Positions 1 to 13,143 of a DNA stretch of 13,143 bases are shown here, in pieces. Position 1 is the stretch's first letter; every line of letters starts with the position of its first letter. This stretch comes from a virus (taxonomy: Duplodnaviria > Heunggongvirae > Uroviricota > Caudoviricetes), in the IMG/VR virus record IMGVR_UViG_2579778631_000018, one strand, 5' to 3'. Both the position numbers and the translations under genes were made by a program. The notes under the pieces are model-generated. The model saw only the letters and a program-made list of their open reading frames with translations, was not told the DNA's origin and ran no database searches.

Positions 1-996
1 TTATGGACGCATTATGGACATTCCTGACACCGGGTTAAGAGTCACTGCATCTTGTAAGAAATCCGGTGCAAAGTGTGCGTAGGTCATAGTTTGCTGAATG
101 TTAGAATGACCTAGGATGCGCTGCAATGTGATTATGTTACCTCCATTCATTATAAAATGTGTGGCAAATGTATGCCTCAAAACATGCACTGCCTGTCCGT
201 CAGGTAAATCGGGTTTTACTTCCCTGAGAGCGTTACGCACTTTGTAGTAACTGGCATTAAAAAGCCTGCCTGAATTTTTGGTCTTGATCCGTTTAATCAG
301 GTCCTGCGAAACGGGAATTGTCCTGCGCTTTCCGTTTTTAGTTTTCATAAACGTAACCATCTGGTTAATGATGTGTTCAGCTTTTAAATTAGACACTTCA
401 CTCCAGCGTCCACCAGTAGAAAGGCAGACCAGAGTCGCATTTAATTCATCACCATCAAGCATGGATAACAGTCGCGTAATCTCTTCACTGGACAAAAAAG
501 CCATTTCTGTAACAGCTTCACGTAACCGCTTAACCTCACGGAACGGGTTGTGAGAGTGGTATTCACCGGCGTCAATTAACTTGGTGAACATCCCGCTCAT
601 TATTGCCAGATGCCGATTTACGCTGGCTGGTTTTAGACCATCGTTCATCATTACAACGCGATAATCAGTTATCGTTTTCTTTGTTAGCTGGTCAGCTCTG
701 GACACTCCCATTTCTGCAAATTTGGCGATTATTGTCGTTAAACGCCCCCGTTCAATATCTCCACGCTCATGTGATTTTCCGTGATATATCCACCATCTGC
801 CTAACAACTCTGTAAGAGTTCGGCGGTCGGCTGGTTTCTCCAGCCACTCTTTGTTGTGGTAGTTAACCAGTACATGACGTTCGAATGCTTGAGCTTCACC
901 TTTAGTTTTAAATTTTCGCCTGATACGTTTTCCATCTGCACCCTGCGGTCTGACGTCCACTTCATAACGACCATCATCGAGCTTTTTAATAGACAT
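1..996 (-). CDS. int: Tyrosine site-specific integrase, P2-type (331 aa)
   Basis: Complete minus-strand ORF (ATG at 996-994, TAA at 3-1). N-terminus MSIKKLDDGRYEVDVRP... closely parallels phage P2 Int as I recall it. C-terminal catalytic boxes HVLRHTFATH and LGHSNIQQTMTYAHF are typical of tyrosine recombinases. Sits beside the C repressor, as in P2. Confidence 0.9.
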   Translation of the reverse strand: MSIKKLDDGRYEVDVRPQGADGKRIRRKFKTKGEAQAFERHVLVNYHNKEWLEKPADRRTLTELLGRWWIYHGKSHERGDIERGRLTTIIAKFAEMGVSRADQLTKKTITDYRVVMMNDGLKPASVNRHLAIMSGMFTKLIDAGEYHSHNPFREVKRLREAVTEMAFLSSEEITRLLSMLDGDELNATLVCLSTGGRWSEVSNLKAEHIINQMVTFMKTKNGKRRTIPVSQDLIKRIKTKNSGRLFNASYYKVRNALREVKPDLPDGQAVHVLRHTFATHFIMNGGNIITLQRILGHSNIQQTMTYAHFAPDFLQDAVTLNPVSGMSIMRP

Positions 997-3346: not shown

Positions 3347-3618
3347 GTATTCGTATTGAAATTGGCGAACGTTATGTCGTTACCAGTGACAGCTTCCAGT
3401 TTATTCTCCACGAGAAAAAGAGAGCGGAAAGCGGTAAAAACGCCGGTCAGGAATGGCTGGCGGTGGTTGGTTATTACCCGAAATTAAGCCAGCTTGTTTC
3501 CGGCCTGATGCATCACGATATTCTGACCGGAAGCGCAAAGTCTTTTGCTGATTTAAACGCGCAGGTTGAGCAACTCAGCAGGCGTTGTTCAGAGGCTTTT
3601 GGCTCATATGGCCGTTAA
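3343..3618 (+). CDS. Hypothetical early protein (91 aa; P2 orf83 position)
   Basis: Start overlaps the orf82-like stop; its 3' end overlaps the gene A start by 11 nt. No family recognised. Confidence 0.5.
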   Translation: MSIRIEIGERYVVTSDSFQFILHEKKRAESGKNAGQEWLAVVGYYPKLSQLVSGLMHHDILTGSAKSFADLNAQVEQLSRRCSEAFGSYGR

Positions 3619-5731
3619 AGCCTCCGGGCGTTTTGTCCCTCCGTCAGCATTTGCTGCAGGCACCGGTAAGGCGTTTACCGGTGCTTATGCATGGAACGCG
3701 CCACGCGAGGCCGTCGGGCGCGAAAGACCCCTTACACGTGACGAGATGCGTCAGGTGCAAGGTGTTTTATCCACGATTAACCGCCTGCCTTACTTTTTGC
3801 GCTCGCTGTTTACTTCACGCTATGACTACATCCGGCGCAATAAAAGCCCGGTGCACGGGTTTTATTTCCTCACATCCACTTTTCAGCGTCGTTTATGGCC
3901 GCGCATTGAGCGCGTGAATCAGCGCCATGAAATGAACACCGACGCGTCGTTGCTGTTTCTGGCAGAGCGTGACCATTATGCGCGTCTGCCGGGGATGAAT
4001 GATAAGGAGCTGAAAAAGTTTGCCGCCCGTATCTCATCGCAGCTTTTCATGATGTATGAGGAACTCTGCGATGCCTGGGTGGATGCGCATGGCGAAAAAG
4101 AATCGCTGTTTACGGATGAGGCGCAGGCTCACCTCTATGGTCATGTTGCTGGCGCTGCACGTGCTTTCAATATTTCCCCGCTCTACTGGAAAAAATACCG
4201 TAAAGGACAGATGACCACGAGGCAGGCATATTCTGCCATTGCCCGCCTGTTTAACGATGAGTGGTGGATTAGTCAGCTTAAAGGCCAGCGTATGCGCTGG
4301 CATGAGGCGTTACTGATTGCTGTCGGGGAGGTCAATAAAGACCGTTCACCTTATGCCAGTAAACATGCCATTCGTGATGTGCGTGCACGCCGCCAGGCAA
4401 ATCTGGAATTTCTTAAATCGTGTGACCTTGAAAACAGGGAAACCGGCGAACGCATCGACCTTATCAGTAAGGTGATGGGCAGTATTTCTAATCCTGAAAT
4501 TCGCCGGATGGAGCTGATGAACACCATTGCCGGTATTGAGCGTTACGCCGCCGCAGAGGGTGATGTGGGGATGTTTATCACGCTTACCGCGCCGTCAAAG
4601 TATCACCCGACACGTCAGGTCGGAAAAGGCGAAAGTAAAACCGTCCAGCTAAATCACGGCTGGAACGATGAGGCATTTAATCCAAAGGATGCGCAGCGTT
4701 ATCTCTGCCATATCTGGAGCCTGATGCGCACGGCATTCAAGGATAATGATTTACAGGTCTACGGTTTGCGTGTCGTCGAGCCACACCACGACGGAACGCC
4801 GCACTGGCATATGATGCTTTTTTGTAATCCACGCCAGCGTAACCAGATTATCGAAATCATGCGTCGCTATGCGCTCAAAGAGGATGGCGACGAAAGAGGA
4901 GCCGCGCGAAACCGTTTTCAGGCAAAACATCTTAACCGGGGCGGTGCTGCGGGGTATATCGCAAAATACATCTCAAAAAACATCGATGGCTATGCACTGG
5001 ATGGTCAGCTCGATAATGATACCGGCAGGCCGCTGAAAGATACTGCTGCGGCTGTTACCGCATGGGCGTCAACGTGGCGAATTCCGCAATTTAAAACGGT
5101 TGGCCTGCCGACAATGGGGGCTTACCGTGAACTACGCAAATTGCCTCGCGGCGTCAGTATTGCTGATGAGTTTGACGAACGCGTCGAGGCTGCTCGCGCT
5201 GCCGCAGACAGTGGTGATTTTGCGTTGTATATCAGCGCGCAGGGTGGGGCAAATGTCCCGCGCGATTGTCAGACTGTCAGGGTTGCCCGTAGCCCGTCGG
5301 ATGACGTTAACGAGTACGAGGAAGAAGTCGAGAGAGTGGTCGGCATTTACGCGCCGCATCTCGGCGCGCGTCATATTCATATCACCAGAACGACGGACTG
5401 GCGCATTGTGCCGAAAGTTCCGGTCGTTGAGCCTTTGACTTTAAAAAGCGGCATCGCCGCGCCTCGGAGTCCTGTCAATAACTGTGGAAAACTCACCTGT
5501 GGCGATACTTCGTTACCGGCTCCCACACCTTCTGAGCACGCCGCAGCAGTGCTTAATCTGGTAGATGACGGTGTTATCGAATGGAATGACCCGGAGGTCT
5601 TGAAAGTGCTTAATCTGGCATTGAAAATAGAAGCATCACGTAAATGTACAAACAAAGGAGACACACGAGCAGGCATAGTTGGCGAGTCAACCGCGATTTT
5701 CAATGTACAGGATGCTGATAATCAACAATGA
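3608..5731 (+). CDS. A: Replication initiation endonuclease gpA (HUH rolling-circle initiator, 707 aa)
   Basis: ATG at 3608 with AGAGG 12 nt upstream; the ORF-track start at 3566 is an upstream TTG. N-terminus MAVKASGRFVPPSAFAAGTGK matches my memory of P2 gpA. HUH-type metal motif EPHHDGTPHWHMMLF and the double-tyrosine motif GYIAKYISK (compare phiX174 A protein YVAKYVNK) are present. Confidence 0.9.
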   Translation: MAVKASGRFVPPSAFAAGTGKAFTGAYAWNAPREAVGRERPLTRDEMRQVQGVLSTINRLPYFLRSLFTSRYDYIRRNKSPVHGFYFLTSTFQRRLWPRIERVNQRHEMNTDASLLFLAERDHYARLPGMNDKELKKFAARISSQLFMMYEELCDAWVDAHGEKESLFTDEAQAHLYGHVAGAARAFNISPLYWKKYRKGQMTTRQAYSAIARLFNDEWWISQLKGQRMRWHEALLIAVGEVNKDRSPYASKHAIRDVRARRQANLEFLKSCDLENRETGERIDLISKVMGSISNPEIRRMELMNTIAGIERYAAAEGDVGMFITLTAPSKYHPTRQVGKGESKTVQLNHGWNDEAFNPKDAQRYLCHIWSLMRTAFKDNDLQVYGLRVVEPHHDGTPHWHMMLFCNPRQRNQIIEIMRRYALKEDGDERGAARNRFQAKHLNRGGAAGYIAKYISKNIDGYALDGQLDNDTGRPLKDTAAAVTAWASTWRIPQFKTVGLPTMGAYRELRKLPRGVSIADEFDERVEAARAAADSGDFALYISAQGGANVPRDCQTVRVARSPSDDVNEYEEEVERVVGIYAPHLGARHIHITRTTDWRIVPKVPVVEPLTLKSGIAAPRSPVNNCGKLTCGDTSLPAPTPSEHAAAVLNLVDDGVIEWNDPEVLKVLNLALKIEASRKCTNKGDTRAGIVGESTAIFNVQDADNQQ

Positions 5732-5846: not shown

Positions 5847-7100
5847 ATGTTTATGTCGATTTATCAAGGTGGTAACAAGTTAAATGAGGATGATTTTCGT
5901 TCTCACGTTTATTCCTTGTGTCAATTAGATAATGTTGGCGTTCTGTTAGGTGCTGGTGCTTCTGTCGGTTGTGGTGGGAAAACGATGAAAGATGTATGGA
6001 AATCGTTTAAGCAAAACTACCCTGAGCTTTTGGGAGCACTTATTGATAAATATCTTCTGGTTTCGCAAATTGATTCTGATAACAATTTGGTCAATGTTGA
6101 ACTTTTGATAGATGAAGCAACTAAATTTCTTTCTGTAGCTAAAACTAGACGATGTGAAGATGAAGAGGAGGAATTCAGGAAGATATTAAGTTCATTATAT
6201 AAAGAGGTTACGAAGGCTGCATTATTAACAGGAGAACAGTTTAGAGAGAAAAATCAGGGTAAAAAAGATGCGTTTAAATATCACAAAGAGTTAATTTCAA
6301 AATTAATTTCAAATAGACAGCCCGGTCAGTCGGCTCCGGCAATTTTTACAACAAATTATGATTTGGCCTTAGAGTGGGCTGCAGAAGATTTAGGAATACA
6401 GTTGTTTAATGGTTTTTCTGGGCTACATACACGGCAGTTTTATCCCCAGAATTTTGATTTGGCTTTCAGAAATGTAAATGCGAAGGGCGAAGCAAGATTC
6501 GGACATTATCATGCGTATCTCTATAAATTACATGGCTCACTTACGTGGTATCAAAATGATAGCTTGACTGTTAACGAAGTTAGTGCATCTCAAGCATATG
6601 ATGAATATATTAATGACATAATCAATAAAGATGACTTTTATCGCGGTCAACATTTGATTTATCCAGGGGCGAATAAATATAGCCATACAATCGGCTTCGT
6701 TTATGGAGAGATGTTTAGACGTTTTGGGGAGTTTATTTCGAAACCTCAAACAGCGTTGTTCATAAATGGGTTTGGTTTCGGTGATTATCATATAAATAGA
6801 ATAATATTAGGCGCGTTACTGAATCCATCTTTCCATGTTGTTATATATTATCCTGAATTGGAAGAAGCAATTACCAAAGTAAGTAAGGGTGGCGGTTCGG
6901 AAGCTGAGAAAGCTATTGTTACTTTAAAAAACATGGCTTTCAATCAAGTAACTGTAGTTGGGGGAGGAAGCAAGGCATATTTTAATAGTTTCGTAGAACA
7001 TCTACCATACCCTGTGCTCTTTCCACGAGATAATATTGTTGATGAGTTGGTTGAAGCAATTGCTAATCTTTCTAAAGGAGAAGGTAATGTCCCTTTTTAA
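5847..7100 (+). CDS. SIR2-family (sirtuin-like) NAD-binding protein, defence-associated (about 417 aa)
   Basis: Glycine loop LLGAGAS (aa 33-39, nt 5949-5963), TTNYD (aa 168-172) and LHGS (aa 228-231) occur in the order and spacing of the SIR2 fold. Low-GC gene directly upstream of, and overlapping, a HerA-like ATPase. The start could be ATG 5847 or 5853. Confidence 0.8.
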   Translation: MFMSIYQGGNKLNEDDFRSHVYSLCQLDNVGVLLGAGASVGCGGKTMKDVWKSFKQNYPELLGALIDKYLLVSQIDSDNNLVNVELLIDEATKFLSVAKTRRCEDEEEEFRKILSSLYKEVTKAALLTGEQFREKNQGKKDAFKYHKELISKLISNRQPGQSAPAIFTTNYDLALEWAAEDLGIQLFNGFSGLHTRQFYPQNFDLAFRNVNAKGEARFGHYHAYLYKLHGSLTWYQNDSLTVNEVSASQAYDEYINDIINKDDFYRGQHLIYPGANKYSHTIGFVYGEMFRRFGEFISKPQTALFINGFGFGDYHINRIILGALLNPSFHVVIYYPELEEAITKVSKGGGSEAEKAIVTLKNMAFNQVTVVGGGSKAYFNSFVEHLPYPVLFPRDNIVDELVEAIANLSKGEGNVPF

Positions 7101-8919
7101 ACTTACTGAAATCTCGGCTATTGGATACGTTGTAGGATTAGAAGGGGAAAGAATTAGGATAAACCTGCATGAGGGGTTGCAAGGCAGATTAGCATCGCAT
7201 AGAAAGGGGGTGAGCTCAGTAACGCAACCAGGAGATCTTATTGGGTTCGATGCAGGTAATATATTAGTTGTCGCAAGAGTGACAGATATGGCATTTGTTG
7301 AAGCGGATAAAGCGCATAAGGCAAATGTAGGCACATCTGATTTAGCTGATATACCTCTAAGACAAATTATCGCCTATGCAATTGGCTTTGTGAAAAGGGA
7401 GTTAAATGGTTATGTTTTTATATCAGAAGATTGGCGCTTACCTGCATTGGGTTCTTCTGCTGTTCCTTTGACTTCAGATTTTTTGAACATCATTTATAGT
7501 ATTGATAAAGAAGAACTCCCAAAAGCGGTTGAATTAGGTGTGGATTCTCGAACTAAAACCGTTAAGATATTTGCAAGTGTTGATAAATTATTGTCGCGAC
7601 ACTTAGCCGTTCTTGGTAGTACAGGATATGGTAAATCAAATTTCAATGCTTTGTTAACGAGGAAGGTTTCTGAAAAATACCCTAACTCAAGAATAGTTAT
7701 TTTTGACATAAATGGTGAATACGCGCAAGCTTTTACAGGTATTCCAAATGTAAAGCACACTATTCTAGGGGAATCCCCAAATGTTGATAGTTTGGAAAAA
7801 AATCAGCAAAAGGGTGAGCTATATAGTGAAGAGTATTATTGTTATAAAAAGATACCATATCAGGCATTAGGTTTTGCTGGGTTAATTAAATTATTAAGAC
7901 CAAGTGATAAAACACAATTGCCCGCATTAAGAAATGCATTAAGTGCAATTAATCGGACTCATTTTAAAGGCCGTAATATTTACTTGGAAAAAGATGATGG
8001 TGAAACTTTTCTTTTGTATGATGATTGTCGTGACACAAATCAAAGTAAATTGGCTGAGTGGTTGGATTTATTAAGGCGTAGACGTCTTAAAAGAACGAAT
8101 GTATGGCCACCGTTTAAAAGTTTAGCGACTTTGGTTGCTGAATTTGGATGTGTAGCTGCTGACCGTTCTAATGGAAGTAAACGTGACGCGTTTGGTTTTA
8201 GTAACGTGTTGCCATTGGTAAAAATCATACAACAACTTGCAGAGGATATAAGATTTAAATCTATTGTTAATTTAAATGGAGGGGGTGAGCTAGCAGATGG
8301 TGGAACGCATTGGGATAAAGCTATGAGTGATGAAGTTGATTACTTCTTTGGTAAGGAAAAAGGACAAGAAAATGATTGGAATGTTCATATAGTTAATATG
8401 AAAAATTTGGCACAAGATCATGCTCCAATGTTACTTAGTGCATTGTTGGAGATGTTTGCTGAGATACTATTTAGACGTGGGCAGGAACGTTCGTATCCTA
8501 CGGTACTTTTGTTGGAAGAAGCGCATCATTACCTGCGTGACCCTTATGCTGAAATTGACTCACAGATTAAAGCATATGAACGACTTGCTAAAGAAGGTAG
8601 GAAATTCAAATGCTCTTTAATTGTCAGTACTCAGCGACCCTCAGAGCTTTCTCCTACTGTTTTGGCAATGTGTTCAAACTGGTTTTCGTTACGTTTGACT
8701 AATGAAAGAGATTTACAGGCACTCAGATATGCAATGGAAAGCGGTAATGAACAAATCTTAAAACAAATATCAGGTTTACCAAGAGGTGATGCTGTTGCAT
8801 TTGGTTCTGCATTTAATTTGCCTGTAAGAATTTCAATTAATCAAGCAAGGCCAGGGCCAAAATCTTCAGATGCTGTTTTTTCTGAAGAATGGGCTAATTG
8901 TACAGAATTACGTTGTTAA
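7087..8919 (+). CDS. herA: HerA-family P-loop ATPase, defence-associated (about 610 aa)
   Basis: ATG at 7087 with a strong AAAGGAG SD 6 nt upstream; the ORF-track start at 7036 is a TTG. Walker A GSTGYGKS (nt 7615-7638), downstream VIFDINGEY, Walker B VLLLEEAHHY and LIVSTQRPSEL, all typical of HerA/FtsK-type ATPases. An N-terminal region of about 175 aa before the P-loop is consistent with a HAS-barrel. Confidence 0.8.
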   Translation: MSLFKLTEISAIGYVVGLEGERIRINLHEGLQGRLASHRKGVSSVTQPGDLIGFDAGNILVVARVTDMAFVEADKAHKANVGTSDLADIPLRQIIAYAIGFVKRELNGYVFISEDWRLPALGSSAVPLTSDFLNIIYSIDKEELPKAVELGVDSRTKTVKIFASVDKLLSRHLAVLGSTGYGKSNFNALLTRKVSEKYPNSRIVIFDINGEYAQAFTGIPNVKHTILGESPNVDSLEKNQQKGELYSEEYYCYKKIPYQALGFAGLIKLLRPSDKTQLPALRNALSAINRTHFKGRNIYLEKDDGETFLLYDDCRDTNQSKLAEWLDLLRRRRLKRTNVWPPFKSLATLVAEFGCVAADRSNGSKRDAFGFSNVLPLVKIIQQLAEDIRFKSIVNLNGGGELADGGTHWDKAMSDEVDYFFGKEKGQENDWNVHIVNMKNLAQDHAPMLLSALLEMFAEILFRRGQERSYPTVLLLEEAHHYLRDPYAEIDSQIKAYERLAKEGRKFKCSLIVSTQRPSELSPTVLAMCSNWFSLRLTNERDLQALRYAMESGNEQILKQISGLPRGDAVAFGSAFNLPVRISINQARPGPKSSDAVFSEEWANCTELRC

Positions 8920-9076
8920 TTACCTGATGTACATGGCTAGTGCAAGTTGGTAGCGCATGTCTATATGCATTTATTTGCATGTGTTTTATTGAGTGAGCGC
9001 ACAAGCTTGATGACCCGACAGGTATGTATTTAGACTGAATTTACACCTGCATTAAAACCGCCCCACGAAGCGGGCG

Positions 9077-9095
9077 GGCGAGGCGGGGAAAGCAC
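9077..9095. other. cos site: 19-nt P2-type cohesive-end sequence GGCGAGGCGGGGAAAGCAC
   Basis: Exact match to the P2 cohesive-end sequence as I recall it, located between the cargo genes and Q, where cos lies in a P2 prophage. Confidence 0.75.
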
Positions 9096-9235
9096 TGCGC
9101 GCTGGCGGTGGTGCTGATTTTATTTTTTCAGCGTCTGAGCGCGTCGTGATGGCGTTTAGATTGTTCGCCGGGGCGTTGGTGTGTCTGCGGGATGTTTTGT
9201 GCGGTGGTGAGCGTGTGAGGGCGTGATGACAGGGT

Positions 9236-9258
9236 GTAAAAAGCCGCCCGCAGGCGGC
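9236..9258 (-). terminator. Intrinsic terminator downstream of Q (end of the P-Q late transcript)
   Basis: On the minus strand: GC stem gccgcc / ggcggc with a 4-nt loop, followed by TTTTT, immediately 3' of the Q stop codon (9264-9266). Confidence 0.55.
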
Positions 9259-9263
9259 GATGT

Positions 9264-10298
9264 TCAGCCGTTGTCAGTGTCCAGTGAGTAGTTTTTAAAG
9301 CGGATGACCTCCTGACCTAGCCAGCCGTTTATCTCGCGGATCCTGTCCTGTAACGGGATAAGCTCATTGCGGACAAAGACCTTTGCCACTTTCTCAATAT
9401 CACCCAGCGACCCGACGTTCTCCGGCTTGCCGCCCATCAACTGAAAAGGGATGCGGTGCGCGTCCAGCAGGTCTGCGGCGCTGGCTTTTTTGATATTAAA
9501 AAAATCGTCCTTCGTCGCCACTTCACTGAGCGGGATAATTTTAATGCCGTCGGCTTTCCCCTGTGGGGCATAGAGAAACAGGTTTTTAAAGTTGTTGCGG
9601 CCTTTCGACTTCACCATGTTTTCGCGAAGCATTTCGATATCGTTGCGGTCCTGCACGGCATCGGTGACGTACATGATGTATCCGGCATGTGCGCCGTTTT
9701 CGTAATACTTGCGGCGGAACAGCGTGGCCGACTCATTCAGCCAGGCAGAGTTAAGGGCGCTGAGATATTCCGGCAGGCCGTACAGCTCCTGATTAACATC
9801 GGGCTCCAGCAGGTGAAACACGGAGCCGGGCGCGAAGGCTGTCGGCTCGTTGAAGGACGGCACCCACCAGTAAACATCCTCCTCCACGCCACGGCGGGTA
9901 TATTTTGCCGGTGAGGTTTCCAGTCTGATGACCTTACCGGTGGTGCTGTAACGCTTTTCCAGAAACGCATTACCGAACACCAGAAAATCCAGCACAAAGC
10001 GGCTGAAATCCTGTTGCGAAAGCCACGGATGCGGGATAAATGTCGAGGCCAGAATATTGCGTTTAACGTAAATCGGTGAGCTGTGATGCACGGCAGCACG
10101 CAGGCTTTTCGCCAGACCGGTAAAGCTGACCGGTGGCTCATACCATCTGCCGTTACTGATGCATTCGACGTAATTCAGAATGTCACGGCGGTCGAGTACC
10201 GGTACCGGCTCACCAAAGGTGAATGCCTCCATTTTCGGGGCGCTGGCGGTGATTGTTTTTGCCGCAGGTTGCGGTGTTTTCCCTTTTTTCTTGCTCAT
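9264..10298 (-). CDS. Q: Portal protein gpQ (344 aa)
   Basis: 344 aa, identical in length to P2 gpQ (from memory). Its start codon overlaps the P stop (ATGA) and it lies between cos and P, as in P2. Confidence 0.85.
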   Translation of the reverse strand: MSKKKGKTPQPAAKTITASAPKMEAFTFGEPVPVLDRRDILNYVECISNGRWYEPPVSFTGLAKSLRAAVHHSSPIYVKRNILASTFIPHPWLSQQDFSRFVLDFLVFGNAFLEKRYSTTGKVIRLETSPAKYTRRGVEEDVYWWVPSFNEPTAFAPGSVFHLLEPDVNQELYGLPEYLSALNSAWLNESATLFRRKYYENGAHAGYIMYVTDAVQDRNDIEMLRENMVKSKGRNNFKNLFLYAPQGKADGIKIIPLSEVATKDDFFNIKKASAADLLDAHRIPFQLMGGKPENVGSLGDIEKVAKVFVRNELIPLQDRIREINGWLGQEVIRFKNYSLDTDNG

Positions 10299-12070
10299 CA
10301 GTAAAACTCCAGAATGGTGGATGTCAGCGGGGTGCTGATACCGGCGGTGAGTGGCTCATTTAACAGGGCGTGCATGGTCGCCCAGGCGAGGTCGGCGTGG
10401 CTGGCTTCCTCGCTGCGGCTGGCCTCATAGGTGGCGCTGCGTCCGCTGCTGGTCATGGTCTTGCGGATAGCCATAAACGAGCTGGTGATGTCGGTGGCGC
10501 TGACGTCATATTCCAGACAGCCACGGCGAATAACGTCTTTTGCCTTGAGCACCATTGCGGTTTTCATTTCCGGCGTGTAGCGGATATCGCGCGCGGCGGG
10601 ATAGAACGAGCGCACGAGCTGGAACACGCCGACACCGAGGCCGGTGGCATCAATACCGATGTATTCGACGTTGTATTTTTCGGTGAGTTTGCGGATGGAT
10701 TCCGCCTGAGTGGCAAAGTCCATGCCTTTCCACTGGTGACGCTCAAGTATTCTGAATTTGCCACCGGCCACCACCGGCGGTGCCAGCACCACGCATCCGG
10801 CGCTGTCGCCACGGTGTGACGGGTCGTAACCAATCCATACCGGGCGGGAGCCGAACGGATTGGCGGCAAACGGCGCATAGTCTTCCCATTCTTCCAGCGT
10901 GTCGACCATACAGCGTTGCAGCTCCTCGAACGGGAACACCGACGCCTTGTCGTCAACAAATTCACACATGAACAGGTTTTTAAAATCGTCGGCGCTGTTT
11001 TCGCGTTTGAGCTGCTCAATGTCGAACAGCGTGCAGCCGCCTTTCAGCGCGTCCTCAATGGTGACAATCTGCCGCCACTGGCCGTCCGCACAGAGAAGCC
11101 CACCGGCAAGGGCGTTATGACTGACGTCGATTTCCACGCGTTCGGCGGCGCTGGCGCGTCCCCGGTTGAACAGTTCACCCGACCAGAACGGGTAGGCGTC
11201 GTGCGCCAGCGTGGACGGGGTGGAGAAATAGGTCGATCGCAGGTGACTCTGTGAGGCCATACCTGATGCCACCTTACGCAGCACCTGAAAATTCGGGATC
11301 CAGAAAATCTCGTCGACGTACAGGTCGCCGTTATGGCTCTGTGCGGTGTTGGAGTTGGTGCCGAGAAAAATCAGTTTTGCGCCGTTATTGCCCAGGACAA
11401 TCGGGTCACCGGTCAGGTCAACGTCAACCAGCCGGGCAAAGGCGATGATGTATTCGCGGAACACATACGCCTGCGTTTTACTGGCCGACAGAAAAATCTG
11501 GTTATGACCGGTTTTCAGGGCGCGCAGCAGCGCCTCGCGGGAAAAATAAAACGTCGCGCCAATCTGGCGGGATTTCAGGATATCGCGGATGCGGTGCTCA
11601 AGCCCGGCGCGATACCAGTGCAACTGATATTCGAAAGACTGCTCAAAGAAAATCTGCTCCAGCTTTTCGATGGCCTCGTCGCTGAAAAAATTCTTTTTCG
11701 GTTTGCGACGCCCGCCTTTGTTGCGGTTAGCGACGTTCGGATTAAGGTCTGCTTCGTTGCCGGTCTGGCTGTAGCGGTTGACCCGTGCCAGTCGTTCAAT
11801 CTGGCGTCCGAGCAGGTCAATTTCCTTGAAGTCACCGCCGGTTTTCTGCGGTTTGATGATGAGCTGGGTCAGCCGCGCTTCCAGACTCATTTCGACACGG
11901 CTGATGGGGGCAACGCTGTCCCAGCCGTCGCGCTGTTTCCAGCTCTGCACCGTCGGGCGTTTCATCTGCAACATGGCGGCAATCTGCGGCACGGAAAACC
12001 CCTGCCAGTACAGCAGCGCCGCCTGACGACGCGGGTCGTGTAAAAGAGTGGTGTCTGTGGTGATGGTCAT
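10298..12070 (-). CDS. P: Terminase large (ATPase) subunit gpP (590 aa)
   Basis: ATG at 12070-12068 with GAGG 8 nt upstream gives 590 aa, the P2 gpP length as I recall; the ORF track extends to an upstream TTG at 12100. Gene order cos-Q-P is conserved. Confidence 0.85.
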   Translation of the reverse strand: MTITTDTTLLHDPRRQAALLYWQGFSVPQIAAMLQMKRPTVQSWKQRDGWDSVAPISRVEMSLEARLTQLIIKPQKTGGDFKEIDLLGRQIERLARVNRYSQTGNEADLNPNVANRNKGGRRKPKKNFFSDEAIEKLEQIFFEQSFEYQLHWYRAGLEHRIRDILKSRQIGATFYFSREALLRALKTGHNQIFLSASKTQAYVFREYIIAFARLVDVDLTGDPIVLGNNGAKLIFLGTNSNTAQSHNGDLYVDEIFWIPNFQVLRKVASGMASQSHLRSTYFSTPSTLAHDAYPFWSGELFNRGRASAAERVEIDVSHNALAGGLLCADGQWRQIVTIEDALKGGCTLFDIEQLKRENSADDFKNLFMCEFVDDKASVFPFEELQRCMVDTLEEWEDYAPFAANPFGSRPVWIGYDPSHRGDSAGCVVLAPPVVAGGKFRILERHQWKGMDFATQAESIRKLTEKYNVEYIGIDATGLGVGVFQLVRSFYPAARDIRYTPEMKTAMVLKAKDVIRRGCLEYDVSATDITSSFMAIRKTMTSSGRSATYEASRSEEASHADLAWATMHALLNEPLTAGISTPLTSTILEFY

Positions 12071-12243
12071 GAATACCTCGCCGTGATGAATACACGGCAA
12101 GGCTACTGAGTCGCGCCCCGCGATTCGCTAAGGTGCTGTTGTGTCAGTGATAAGCCATCCGGGACTGATGGCGGAGGATGCGTATCGTCGGGAAACTGAT
12201 GCCGACATGTGACTCCTCTAATCACTATTCAGGACTCCTGACA
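12071..12243. promoter_or_regulatory. Divergent late-promoter region between P (-) and O (+)
   Basis: Positional: in P2 this intergenic region carries the Ogr-dependent late promoters for the PQ and ONMLKRS operons. A partial dyad tgtga-N9-tcact is visible at about 12208-12226, but I found no exact TGT-N12-ACA element. Confidence 0.4.
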
Positions 12244-12360
12244 ATGGCAAAAAAAGTCTCAAAATTCTTTCGTATCGGCGTTGCGTATTTTCATGAAAGG
12301 AGATCACTCAATAACTTCCATCGAGATCGGGTAATAACATTTGAACAGATCGCTGAATAA
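12244..12360 (+). pseudogene. O: Capsid scaffold gene O, truncated by insertion (first about 13 codons intact)
   Basis: ATG at 12244 encodes MAKKVSKFFRIGV, which matches the P2 gpO N-terminus as I recall it (MAKKVSKFFRIGVEG...). The frame then reads unrelated sequence and stops at 12358-12360. The ORF-track start at 12178 is an upstream in-frame ATG, probably not used. Confidence 0.65.
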
Positions 12361-12419
12361 CATCGATGGAGATCACTTTTGACTCATTTTGTTATTCAGT
12401 GATCTCCATCAATGTTATT
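12354..12419. repeat. Imperfect inverted repeat of about 22 bp (tgaataacatcgatggagatcac / its complement, 1 mismatch), 20-bp spacer
   Basis: Read directly from the sequence: 12354-12377 versus 12398-12419. A further direct copy of ggagatcact lies at about 12299-12308. Lies in the presumed IS terminal region, upstream of istA. Confidence 0.6.
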
Positions 12420-12474
12420 GGAACTTCACAGGTGTGTTGATCTGTATCTTTTGCCATTCCGGTAAAGGATACCT

Positions 12475-13143
12475 ATGCCAACAGTTCCAATTTCTATGAG
12501 AAAACTTAAAGAAATTCTTAGGCTTAAATACGGTGTTGGACTCAGCCATCGACAAATTGGTCGTAGTCTTGCAATCTCCCCTTCCGTTGTATCCAGATAT
12601 GCTAATCGGGCGGCTCAACTTGGCATAAAGCAGTGGCCCTTACCTACAGGATGGGATGATACAAAACTAAAACATGCGTTCCTTCAGACCCAGGTTAAGA
12701 TGAAGAAGCACTCTCTGCCTGACTGGGCTACAGTACACCGGGAACTGCGTAATAAATGCGTGACGCTGCAGCTACTCTGGGAAGAATACTGTGAGCGTAA
12801 TCCAGGCGGTTTTTACAGCTATAACCATTACTGCCGGATGTACCGTGAATGGCTCAAAACCACTTCACCATCAATGCGTCAGGTACATAAAGCTGGCGAA
12901 AAACTTTTCGTTGATTACTGTGGACCTACCGTTGGCGTTACCGACCCTGAGACCGGAGAAATAAGAACTGCTCAGGTCATCGTAGCTGTTCTCGGGGCAT
13001 CAAGTTACACATGGGCAGAGGCCACCTGGTCTCAGCAGCTTGAAGACTGGGTGATGAGTCATGTTCGCTGCTTCCAGTGGTTGGGTGGCGTTCCTGAACT
13101 TGTTGTTCCGGACAATCTGAAAAGCGCCACATCCAGGGCATGT
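12475..13143 (+). CDS. istA: IS21-family transposase IstA, N-terminal 223 codons (3' partial)
   Basis: ATG at 12475 with AAAGGA 5 nt upstream; the frame is open to the window end. N-terminal HTH MPTVPISMRKLKEILRLKYGVGLSHRQIGRSLAISPSVVSRY is characteristic of IstA, followed by the start of the DDE core (KLFVDYCGPTVGV...). Absent from the ORF track because no stop falls in the window. Confidence 0.8.
   Translation, partial: MPTVPISMRKLKEILRLKYGVGLSHRQIGRSLAISPSVVSRYANRAAQLGIKQWPLPTGWDDTKLKHAFLQTQVKMKKHSLPDWATVHRELRNKCVTLQLLWEEYCERNPGGFYSYNHYCRMYREWLKTTSPSMRQVHKAGEKLFVDYCGPTVGVTDPETGEIRTAQVIVAVLGASSYTWAEATWSQQLEDWVMSHVRCFQWLGGVPELVVPDNLKSATSRAC

Follow-up and report, generated by a model that had tools for sequence, protein, structure and literature searches.

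A putative complete P2-type cos site, its adjoining inverted repeat and an ISEc12 insertion in gene O of a P2-like prophage

The window, by which the whole analysed stretch of 13,143 nucleotides is meant, holds the left-hand portion of an integrated P2-like prophage, which runs from int to A, through a hotspot holding SIR2-HerA, and on through cos, Q, P and a gene O interrupted by ISEc12. Positions around cos are also given relative to its first base, 9077 being +1 and 9076 being -1. The features, with the evidence for them, are as follows.

1-996, minus strand: int
Between int and A: C, cox and B
3608-5731: A, replication gene, 707 aa
5847-7100, plus strand: SIR2, 417 aa (PADLOC E=4e-190; Pfam)
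7087-8919, plus strand: HerA, 610 aa (PADLOC E=4e-277; Pfam)
9048-9102: conserved cos core, 55 bp, -29 to +26 (comparison of P2, P4 and 186; 103 IMG/VR cos regions)
9058-9077: inverted repeat CCGCCC-N8-GGGCGG, present, its pairing not conserved
9069-9077, plus strand: proposed top-strand nick half-site AGCGGGCG^G (near-invariant in 107 aligned cos regions)
9077-9095: cos, 19-nt cohesive end of P2/P4 type (exact match; cosL/cosR of P2; ends of P4)
9095-9103, minus strand: proposed bottom-strand nick half-site AGCGCGCA^G (mirror of the top strand)
9243-9258, minus strand: tQ, the intrinsic terminator that ends the leftward late operon of P and Q (stem and T-run, fold z, P2 annotation)
9264-10298, minus strand: Q, portal protein, intact, 344 aa (Pfam Phage_portal)
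10298-12070, minus strand: P, terminase large/ATPase subunit, intact, 590 aa (Pfam Terminase_5, Terminase_6N, Terminase_6C)
12244-12281, plus strand: 5' stump of O (capsid scaffold), about 13 codons (comparison with intact O; EC45 junction)
12277-12281: target site GGCGT, 5 bp, at the end of the O stump
12282-13143, plus strand: left part of ISEc12 (IS21 family), istA from 12475, running off the window (Pfam rve)

The cos site lies between the variable hotspot on the gpA side and tQ, Q and P, which is the canonical position for P2-like elements. Q and P had been called intact in an earlier note written from the letters of this DNA, and this was borne out by the Pfam domains found for both and by the identity of Q to the P2 protein at 340 of 344 residues. 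The exact P protein occurs in many full P2-like prophages, the exact-match look-up having returned uninterrupted ones only, and HerA was called as 610 aa on other contigs also. The SIR2-HerA anti-phage defence pair is variable cargo of the P2 hotspot between A and cos, a defence hotspot adjoining P2 cos having been described (PMC9122126). This hotspot ends at the cos core, and the SIR2-HerA cassette adjoins an identical core in 19 complete E. coli genomes. The site fixes the annotation of the window as a P2-like prophage, and its core marks the exact right-hand boundary of the defence hotspot at 9048.

The A protein of the window matches the usual A proteins of 759-762 aa up to residue 673. 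Its last 34 residues are unrelated to these, since 5603, a position within the 3' end of A (5603-5731), is where the DNA ceases to be homologous to other P2-like phages. For phage 186 the annotated A gene spans 26744-28828, or roughly 694 codons by our own arithmetic.

The 19-mer GGCGAGGCGGGGAAAGCAC was found at 9077-9095 on the plus strand with no mismatches and as a single copy in the window. No match was obtained in 200 shuffles with up to three mismatches permitted, and the agreement is far beyond chance. In the RefSeq record of phage P2 (NC_001895) positions 1-19 are annotated as 'cosL; left cohesive end' and positions 33575-33593 as 'cosR', both being GGCGAGGCGGGGAAAGCAC, and the same sequence is given as the 5'-protruding cohesive end of P2-related phages (PMC3931495). 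The statement in the earlier note that these 19 nucleotides are the P2 cohesive end was thereby confirmed. The identical 19-mer is found at the genome start and ends of P4 (NC_001609). Among the matches listed, at least 14 phage records begin exactly at the base equivalent to 9077, for example fiAA91-ss, in which it is annotated as cosL, L-413C, S164 and P24A7b. The layout across cos in the window reads ...CATTAAAACCGCCCCACGAAGCGGGCG|GGCGAGGCGGGGAAAGCAC|TGCGCGCTGG..., and the geometry assigned to it is that stated in the annotation of phage 186. On this basis the top strand is expected to be nicked between 9076 and 9077 and the bottom strand between 9095 and 9096.

In order to delimit the conserved region, 120 IMG/VR loci carrying the exact 19-mer were reduced to 103 distinct cos regions from P2-like and P4-like elements. 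The stretch conserved at 90% or more spanned about -35 to +26, and conservation dropped steeply on either side. P2 and P4 have exactly -29 to +26 in common, a block of 55 bp that fits the '55-bp cos region' of the literature, which is described both as the sole homology between P2 and P4 (PMC9122126, PMC9594776) and as the region needed for packaging (PMC3931495, PMC9594776). The core of the window (9048-9102) is identical to that of P2 at 53 of 55 positions, and 9047-9110 matches Escherichia phage 10W, which came from E. coli lysogens, with 100% identity. Homology with the prophage of E. coli EC45 starts exactly at 9048. In an alignment of 107 cos regions the window carries the consensus base at every invariant position, and TGCGCGC at +20 to +26 is invariant or almost so. 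A megablast search with 9040-9110 as the query returned a similar cos region in 2138 of 5426 complete E. coli genomes. By its 19-mer, its 55-bp core and its genomic position the site is assigned to the P2/P4 cos family, and we consider it very probable that it is the complete P2-type cos of a P2-like (Peduovirus) prophage, for which cleavage is predicted.

To the left of the core, ATGCAAC at -36 to -30 extends the conserved block in most natural cos regions, including those of P4 and 186. Within it TGCA at -35 to -32 is at least 90% conserved and together with the core makes TGCA-AC-TGCA. The extension is absent from P2, which has TTAAGG; the window has TTACACC at 9041-9047, with an A where the conserved G at -34 is expected.

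Alignment with the cos regions of P2 and 186, which the earlier note had proposed as a check, showed the P2 19-mer to be identical and the conserved flanks to be present. P2 shares the cohesive end, the core and the position of the site relative to tQ, Q and P, and differs within the core solely at -12 and -11, in the 'loop' of the inverted repeat, where the window has AC and P2 has GT. Left of -29 the two are unrelated, the cargo being SIR2-HerA in the window and old/tin in P2. P4 has the same 19-mer and the core from -29 to +26 in common with the window, with GCA at -12 to -10 and C at +20, whereas its sequence past +26 is unrelated. Phage 186 (NC_001317) is built alike, with the left block TGCATTAAAACC, GCGCGC to the right and an annotated cut geometry, but its 19-mer is GGCGTGGCGGGGAAAGCAT, which differs from GGCGAGGCGGGGAAAGCAC at 2 of 19 positions, and two of the six pairs of the inverted repeat are unpaired. 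The cos of phage lambda (cosQ-cosN-cosB), at which terminase makes staggered nicks in a partly two-fold symmetric nick site flanked by asymmetric recognition elements, works alike in outline, the symmetry of the window cos having been computed here. It is without sequence relation to the P2 type and leaves ends of 12 nt as opposed to 19 nt; lambda terminase uses concatemers whereas that of P2 prefers circular monomers. Knowledge of the P2 cos sequence goes back to the 1970s and that of its 55-bp core reportedly to 1990, the year of the primary paper by Ziermann and Calendar. As a discovery the site carries little weight, being an ordinary and already known P2-type cos, and its value is practical. 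Nothing is new about the site itself; the additions made here are the survey of natural variants and the half-site symmetry proposed below.

The cohesive end is adjoined on its left by an inverted repeat, whose arms CCGCCC (9058-9063) and GGGCGG (9072-9077) are reverse complements of each other around the 8-nt loop CACGAAGC. The final G of the stem is cos base 1, and TTTTAATG comes after the stem when the minus strand is read. The GC stem of 6 bp, the loop and the minus-strand tail described in the earlier note are thus all present in the sequence, and two roles had been suggested there for them, namely a leftward terminator or a part of the terminase recognition region. Folding of the 61-nt region was no better than that of dinucleotide shuffles (z of -0.46 on the minus strand and -0.76 on the plus strand), and the minimum-energy fold of the minus strand was another pairing of 9 bp, in which the left arm joins bases inside cos. 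All six pairs were kept in 45 of the 103 distinct natural cos regions and at least one was broken in the other 58, the commonest variants being one-sided and pair-breaking: C to A at -16 (36/103) and G to A at -1 (28/103). A pair-breaking C to A at -18 occurs naturally as well. Double changes were confined to a single stem pair in 2 of the 107 aligned sequences. In the same alignment 85.7% of cells were paired, compared to 85.5% in shuffles, and the covariation score was matched by 73 of 500 shuffles. The arms are moreover unequal, the right arm (GGGCG) being almost invariant and the left arm tolerant. The dyad beside cos is not under selection as a structure, and its bases are conserved as linear sequence; a hairpin as a conserved structure was rejected on the fold z-scores, the pair tally over the 103 regions and the pair count with its controls. 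An alternative register of 4 bp, CCCG/CGGG, was likewise rejected: it pairs in P2, P4 and 186 and is broken in the window and at 79 of the 103 sites.

These results bear on the possibility that terminase recognises the inverted repeat itself, whether as a dyad or as a hairpin or cruciform extruded from the DNA. The repeat abuts the top-strand nick, its last stem base being the first of cos, and the six pairs are all intact in P2, P4 and the window. Recognition of such a structure is nevertheless extremely unlikely, given that 186, a working phage, carries unpaired left-arm variants, that natural cos regions with the exact P2 19-mer have A at -16 or at -1 at the frequencies given above, and that neither covariation nor an excess of pairing over shuffles was observed. 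The suggestion that the stem belongs to the terminase recognition region stands insofar as its bases lie inside the 55-bp core; it does not hold for the pairing, these bases being conserved linearly. That the survey of natural variants shows the dyad to be unselected can help in designing minimal P2/P4 cosmids.

The second role would have the stem-loop at 9058-9077 act in minus-strand RNA as an intrinsic terminator or insulator that halts late transcription before the cargo region. Read on the minus strand from 9077 to 9050, the sequence consists of the 6-bp G-C stem, the 8-nt loop and a tail that is only UUUUAAUG, and it passes a loose terminator scan, in which it is listed with six G-C pairs, the 8-nt loop and the tail TTTTAATGCA. 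The A-run at -23 to -20 is at least 90% conserved. The tail however has just four U, the fold is no more stable than shuffles with a minimum-energy structure that pairs otherwise, and the pairs broken in natural sites are not compensated. Furthermore, leftward P-Q transcription meets tQ roughly 165 bp before it reaches cos. This terminator, GCCGCC-TGCG-GGCGGC followed by TTTTT (9258-9243, minus strand), comes immediately behind the stop codon of Q; P2 has a homologous site with the annotation tQ, and the fold z of -3.48 marks the present one as strong. A strong terminator is hence already in place upstream on the same transcript, and termination at the stem beside cos is very unlikely; that part of the earlier note was not upheld.

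On the plus strand, a weak stem lies to the right of cos (9093-9120). It can be drawn as ACUGCG/CGGUGG or, in the pattern scan, as GCGCTGG/CGGTGGTGC, and is followed by TGATTTTATTTTTT. The stem at 9093-9110 with its T-run is weakly stable (fold z -1.45) and is kept among P2-like elements and not among P4-like ones. Cargo transcripts heading rightward could be halted by it ahead of Q, into which they would otherwise run in antisense.

Conservation of the repeat as linear sequence leaves the invariance of its right arm to be accounted for, and here the symmetry of the two nick sites was considered. Read 5' to 3' towards the nick, the top strand is AGCGGGCG^G (-8 to +1) and the bottom strand AGCGCGCA^G (the complement of +27 to +19). 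The mirror match between the half-sites was 7 of 10 at -9 to +1, a level met by 0.44% of window positions and by 7 of 474 (1.5%) of the G+C-rich position pairs in the window, the latter figure counting against the two-fold model. The common motif GCGSGCR^G is invariant or almost so on both strands in the 107 aligned sequences. The sole variable half-site position is -1, which is G or A, and the mirror position is correspondingly A or G. The invariant right arm of the dyad is therefore, we infer, most likely the top-strand nick half-site. Partial two-fold symmetry is expected where one enzyme nicks both strands of a site, and this would explain why +20 to +26 are conserved to the same degree as the cohesive end. 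The left block TGCATTAAAACC (-29 to -18) is without a mirror partner, and this asymmetric block is likely a terminase binding or recognition element or a termination element.

Taken together with the annotation of P2 and 186 and the literature, from which the cleavage positions are drawn, this suggests the following course of events. After excision and replication, terminase, composed of the large subunit P and the small subunit M, would recognise the core of about 55 bp and nick it 19 bp apart, in the top strand before 9077 and in the bottom strand after 9095. The outcome would be a packaged genome with the 5'-protruding cohesive ends GGCGAGGCGGGGAAAGCAC. The bases of the 'hairpin' would act as part of a linear recognition sequence, with the left arm serving as a tolerant spacer.

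Whether such cleavage could take place in the present prophage depends on the genes beyond P. O is broken at codon 13 by ISEc12, and the prophage is on that account probably defective. The inserted sequence (12282-13143) is 100% identical to ISEc12 of E. coli CE0021a. The only identical O::ISEc12 junction found, in the same orientation, was that of E. coli EC45 (locus 9654-12246), a prophage with other hotspot cargo; a search with the 34-nt junction gave no match in GTDB representative genomes or JGI metagenomes. The EC45 element is complete, being 2.59 kb long with both terminal inverted repeats, the ends TGCGTATT...AATACGCA and a 5-bp duplication of the target GGCGT. Downstream of it lie the rest of O, annotated as a pseudogene, and then N, M, L, the lysis genes and the tail genes. 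In P2-like prophages O, N, M and L follow one another in one direction. By analogy with EC45 we infer that the late genes continue likewise after the IS in the present prophage, the window ending inside the IS, and that M, the terminase small subunit gene, lies beyond ISEc12 and outside the window.

The sequences of EC45 and the window show 74 differences (mismatches and gaps) across cos, Q and P up to 12183 and none in the IS. The shared junction may reflect either a single insertion that spread by recombination or a preferred target.

The insertion raises the question of whether the cos is still in use. It is reasonable to regard the element as being without capsid function, O being destroyed and N, M and L lying downstream in the same direction. 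One reading, to which we give about an even chance, is that the cos is intact and stranded, a recent relic that is never cut in this strain, ISEc12 in O blocking capsid assembly and probably being polar on M. The break of O at codon 13, the single direction of O-N-M-L in P2-like prophages and the pseudogene left of O at the identical EC45 junction all point this way. Being stranded is at the same time compatible with a true cos. Sequence decay was not observed, the core being 100% identical to that of the 10W phage genome, and a helper could conceivably make use of the site. The earlier note had proposed such use, in that the element with its intact cos, Q and P might still be packaged if a P2-like helper supplied capsid functions in trans. 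In principle such helper packaging is plausible, there being a precedent in plasmids with a P4 or P2 cos, which P2/P4 package in trans (PMC2231350, PMC9594776).

Several requirements would nonetheless have to be satisfied. Excision of the prophage and its replication as a circle are needed, as is a helper that is not shut off by the resident repressor. P2 lysogens are not known to be inducible, and the circular monomer is the substrate that P2 terminase prefers. M is probably not expressed and hence would be needed from the helper as well. The altered C-terminus of A is a further obstacle. Due to the IS, the genome is 2.6 kb longer than that of the uninterrupted prophage, which may exceed the capacity of the head. 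A further reading is that the disrupted prophage is not simply decaying and would persist as a helper-dependent, satellite-like carrier of SIR2-HerA, packaged by a co-resident or superinfecting P2-like phage, with a kept set of functions consisting of a perfect cos, int, cox, B, A with its altered C-terminus, Q and P. We regard such persistence as very improbable. If true, two prophages with different cargo and with differences across Q-P would share their O::ISEc12 junction as the mark of a lineage repeatedly exchanging cos-adjacent cargo.

Insertions of ISEc12 in P2-like prophages are not confined to one site. The copy in E. coli CE0021a (6001-8600) lies inside the hotspot of a different P2-like prophage, where it has a cassette with a retron-type reverse transcriptase on one side and the portal gene on the other. 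A 273-bp ORF (8586-8858) is called there between istB and the portal gene.
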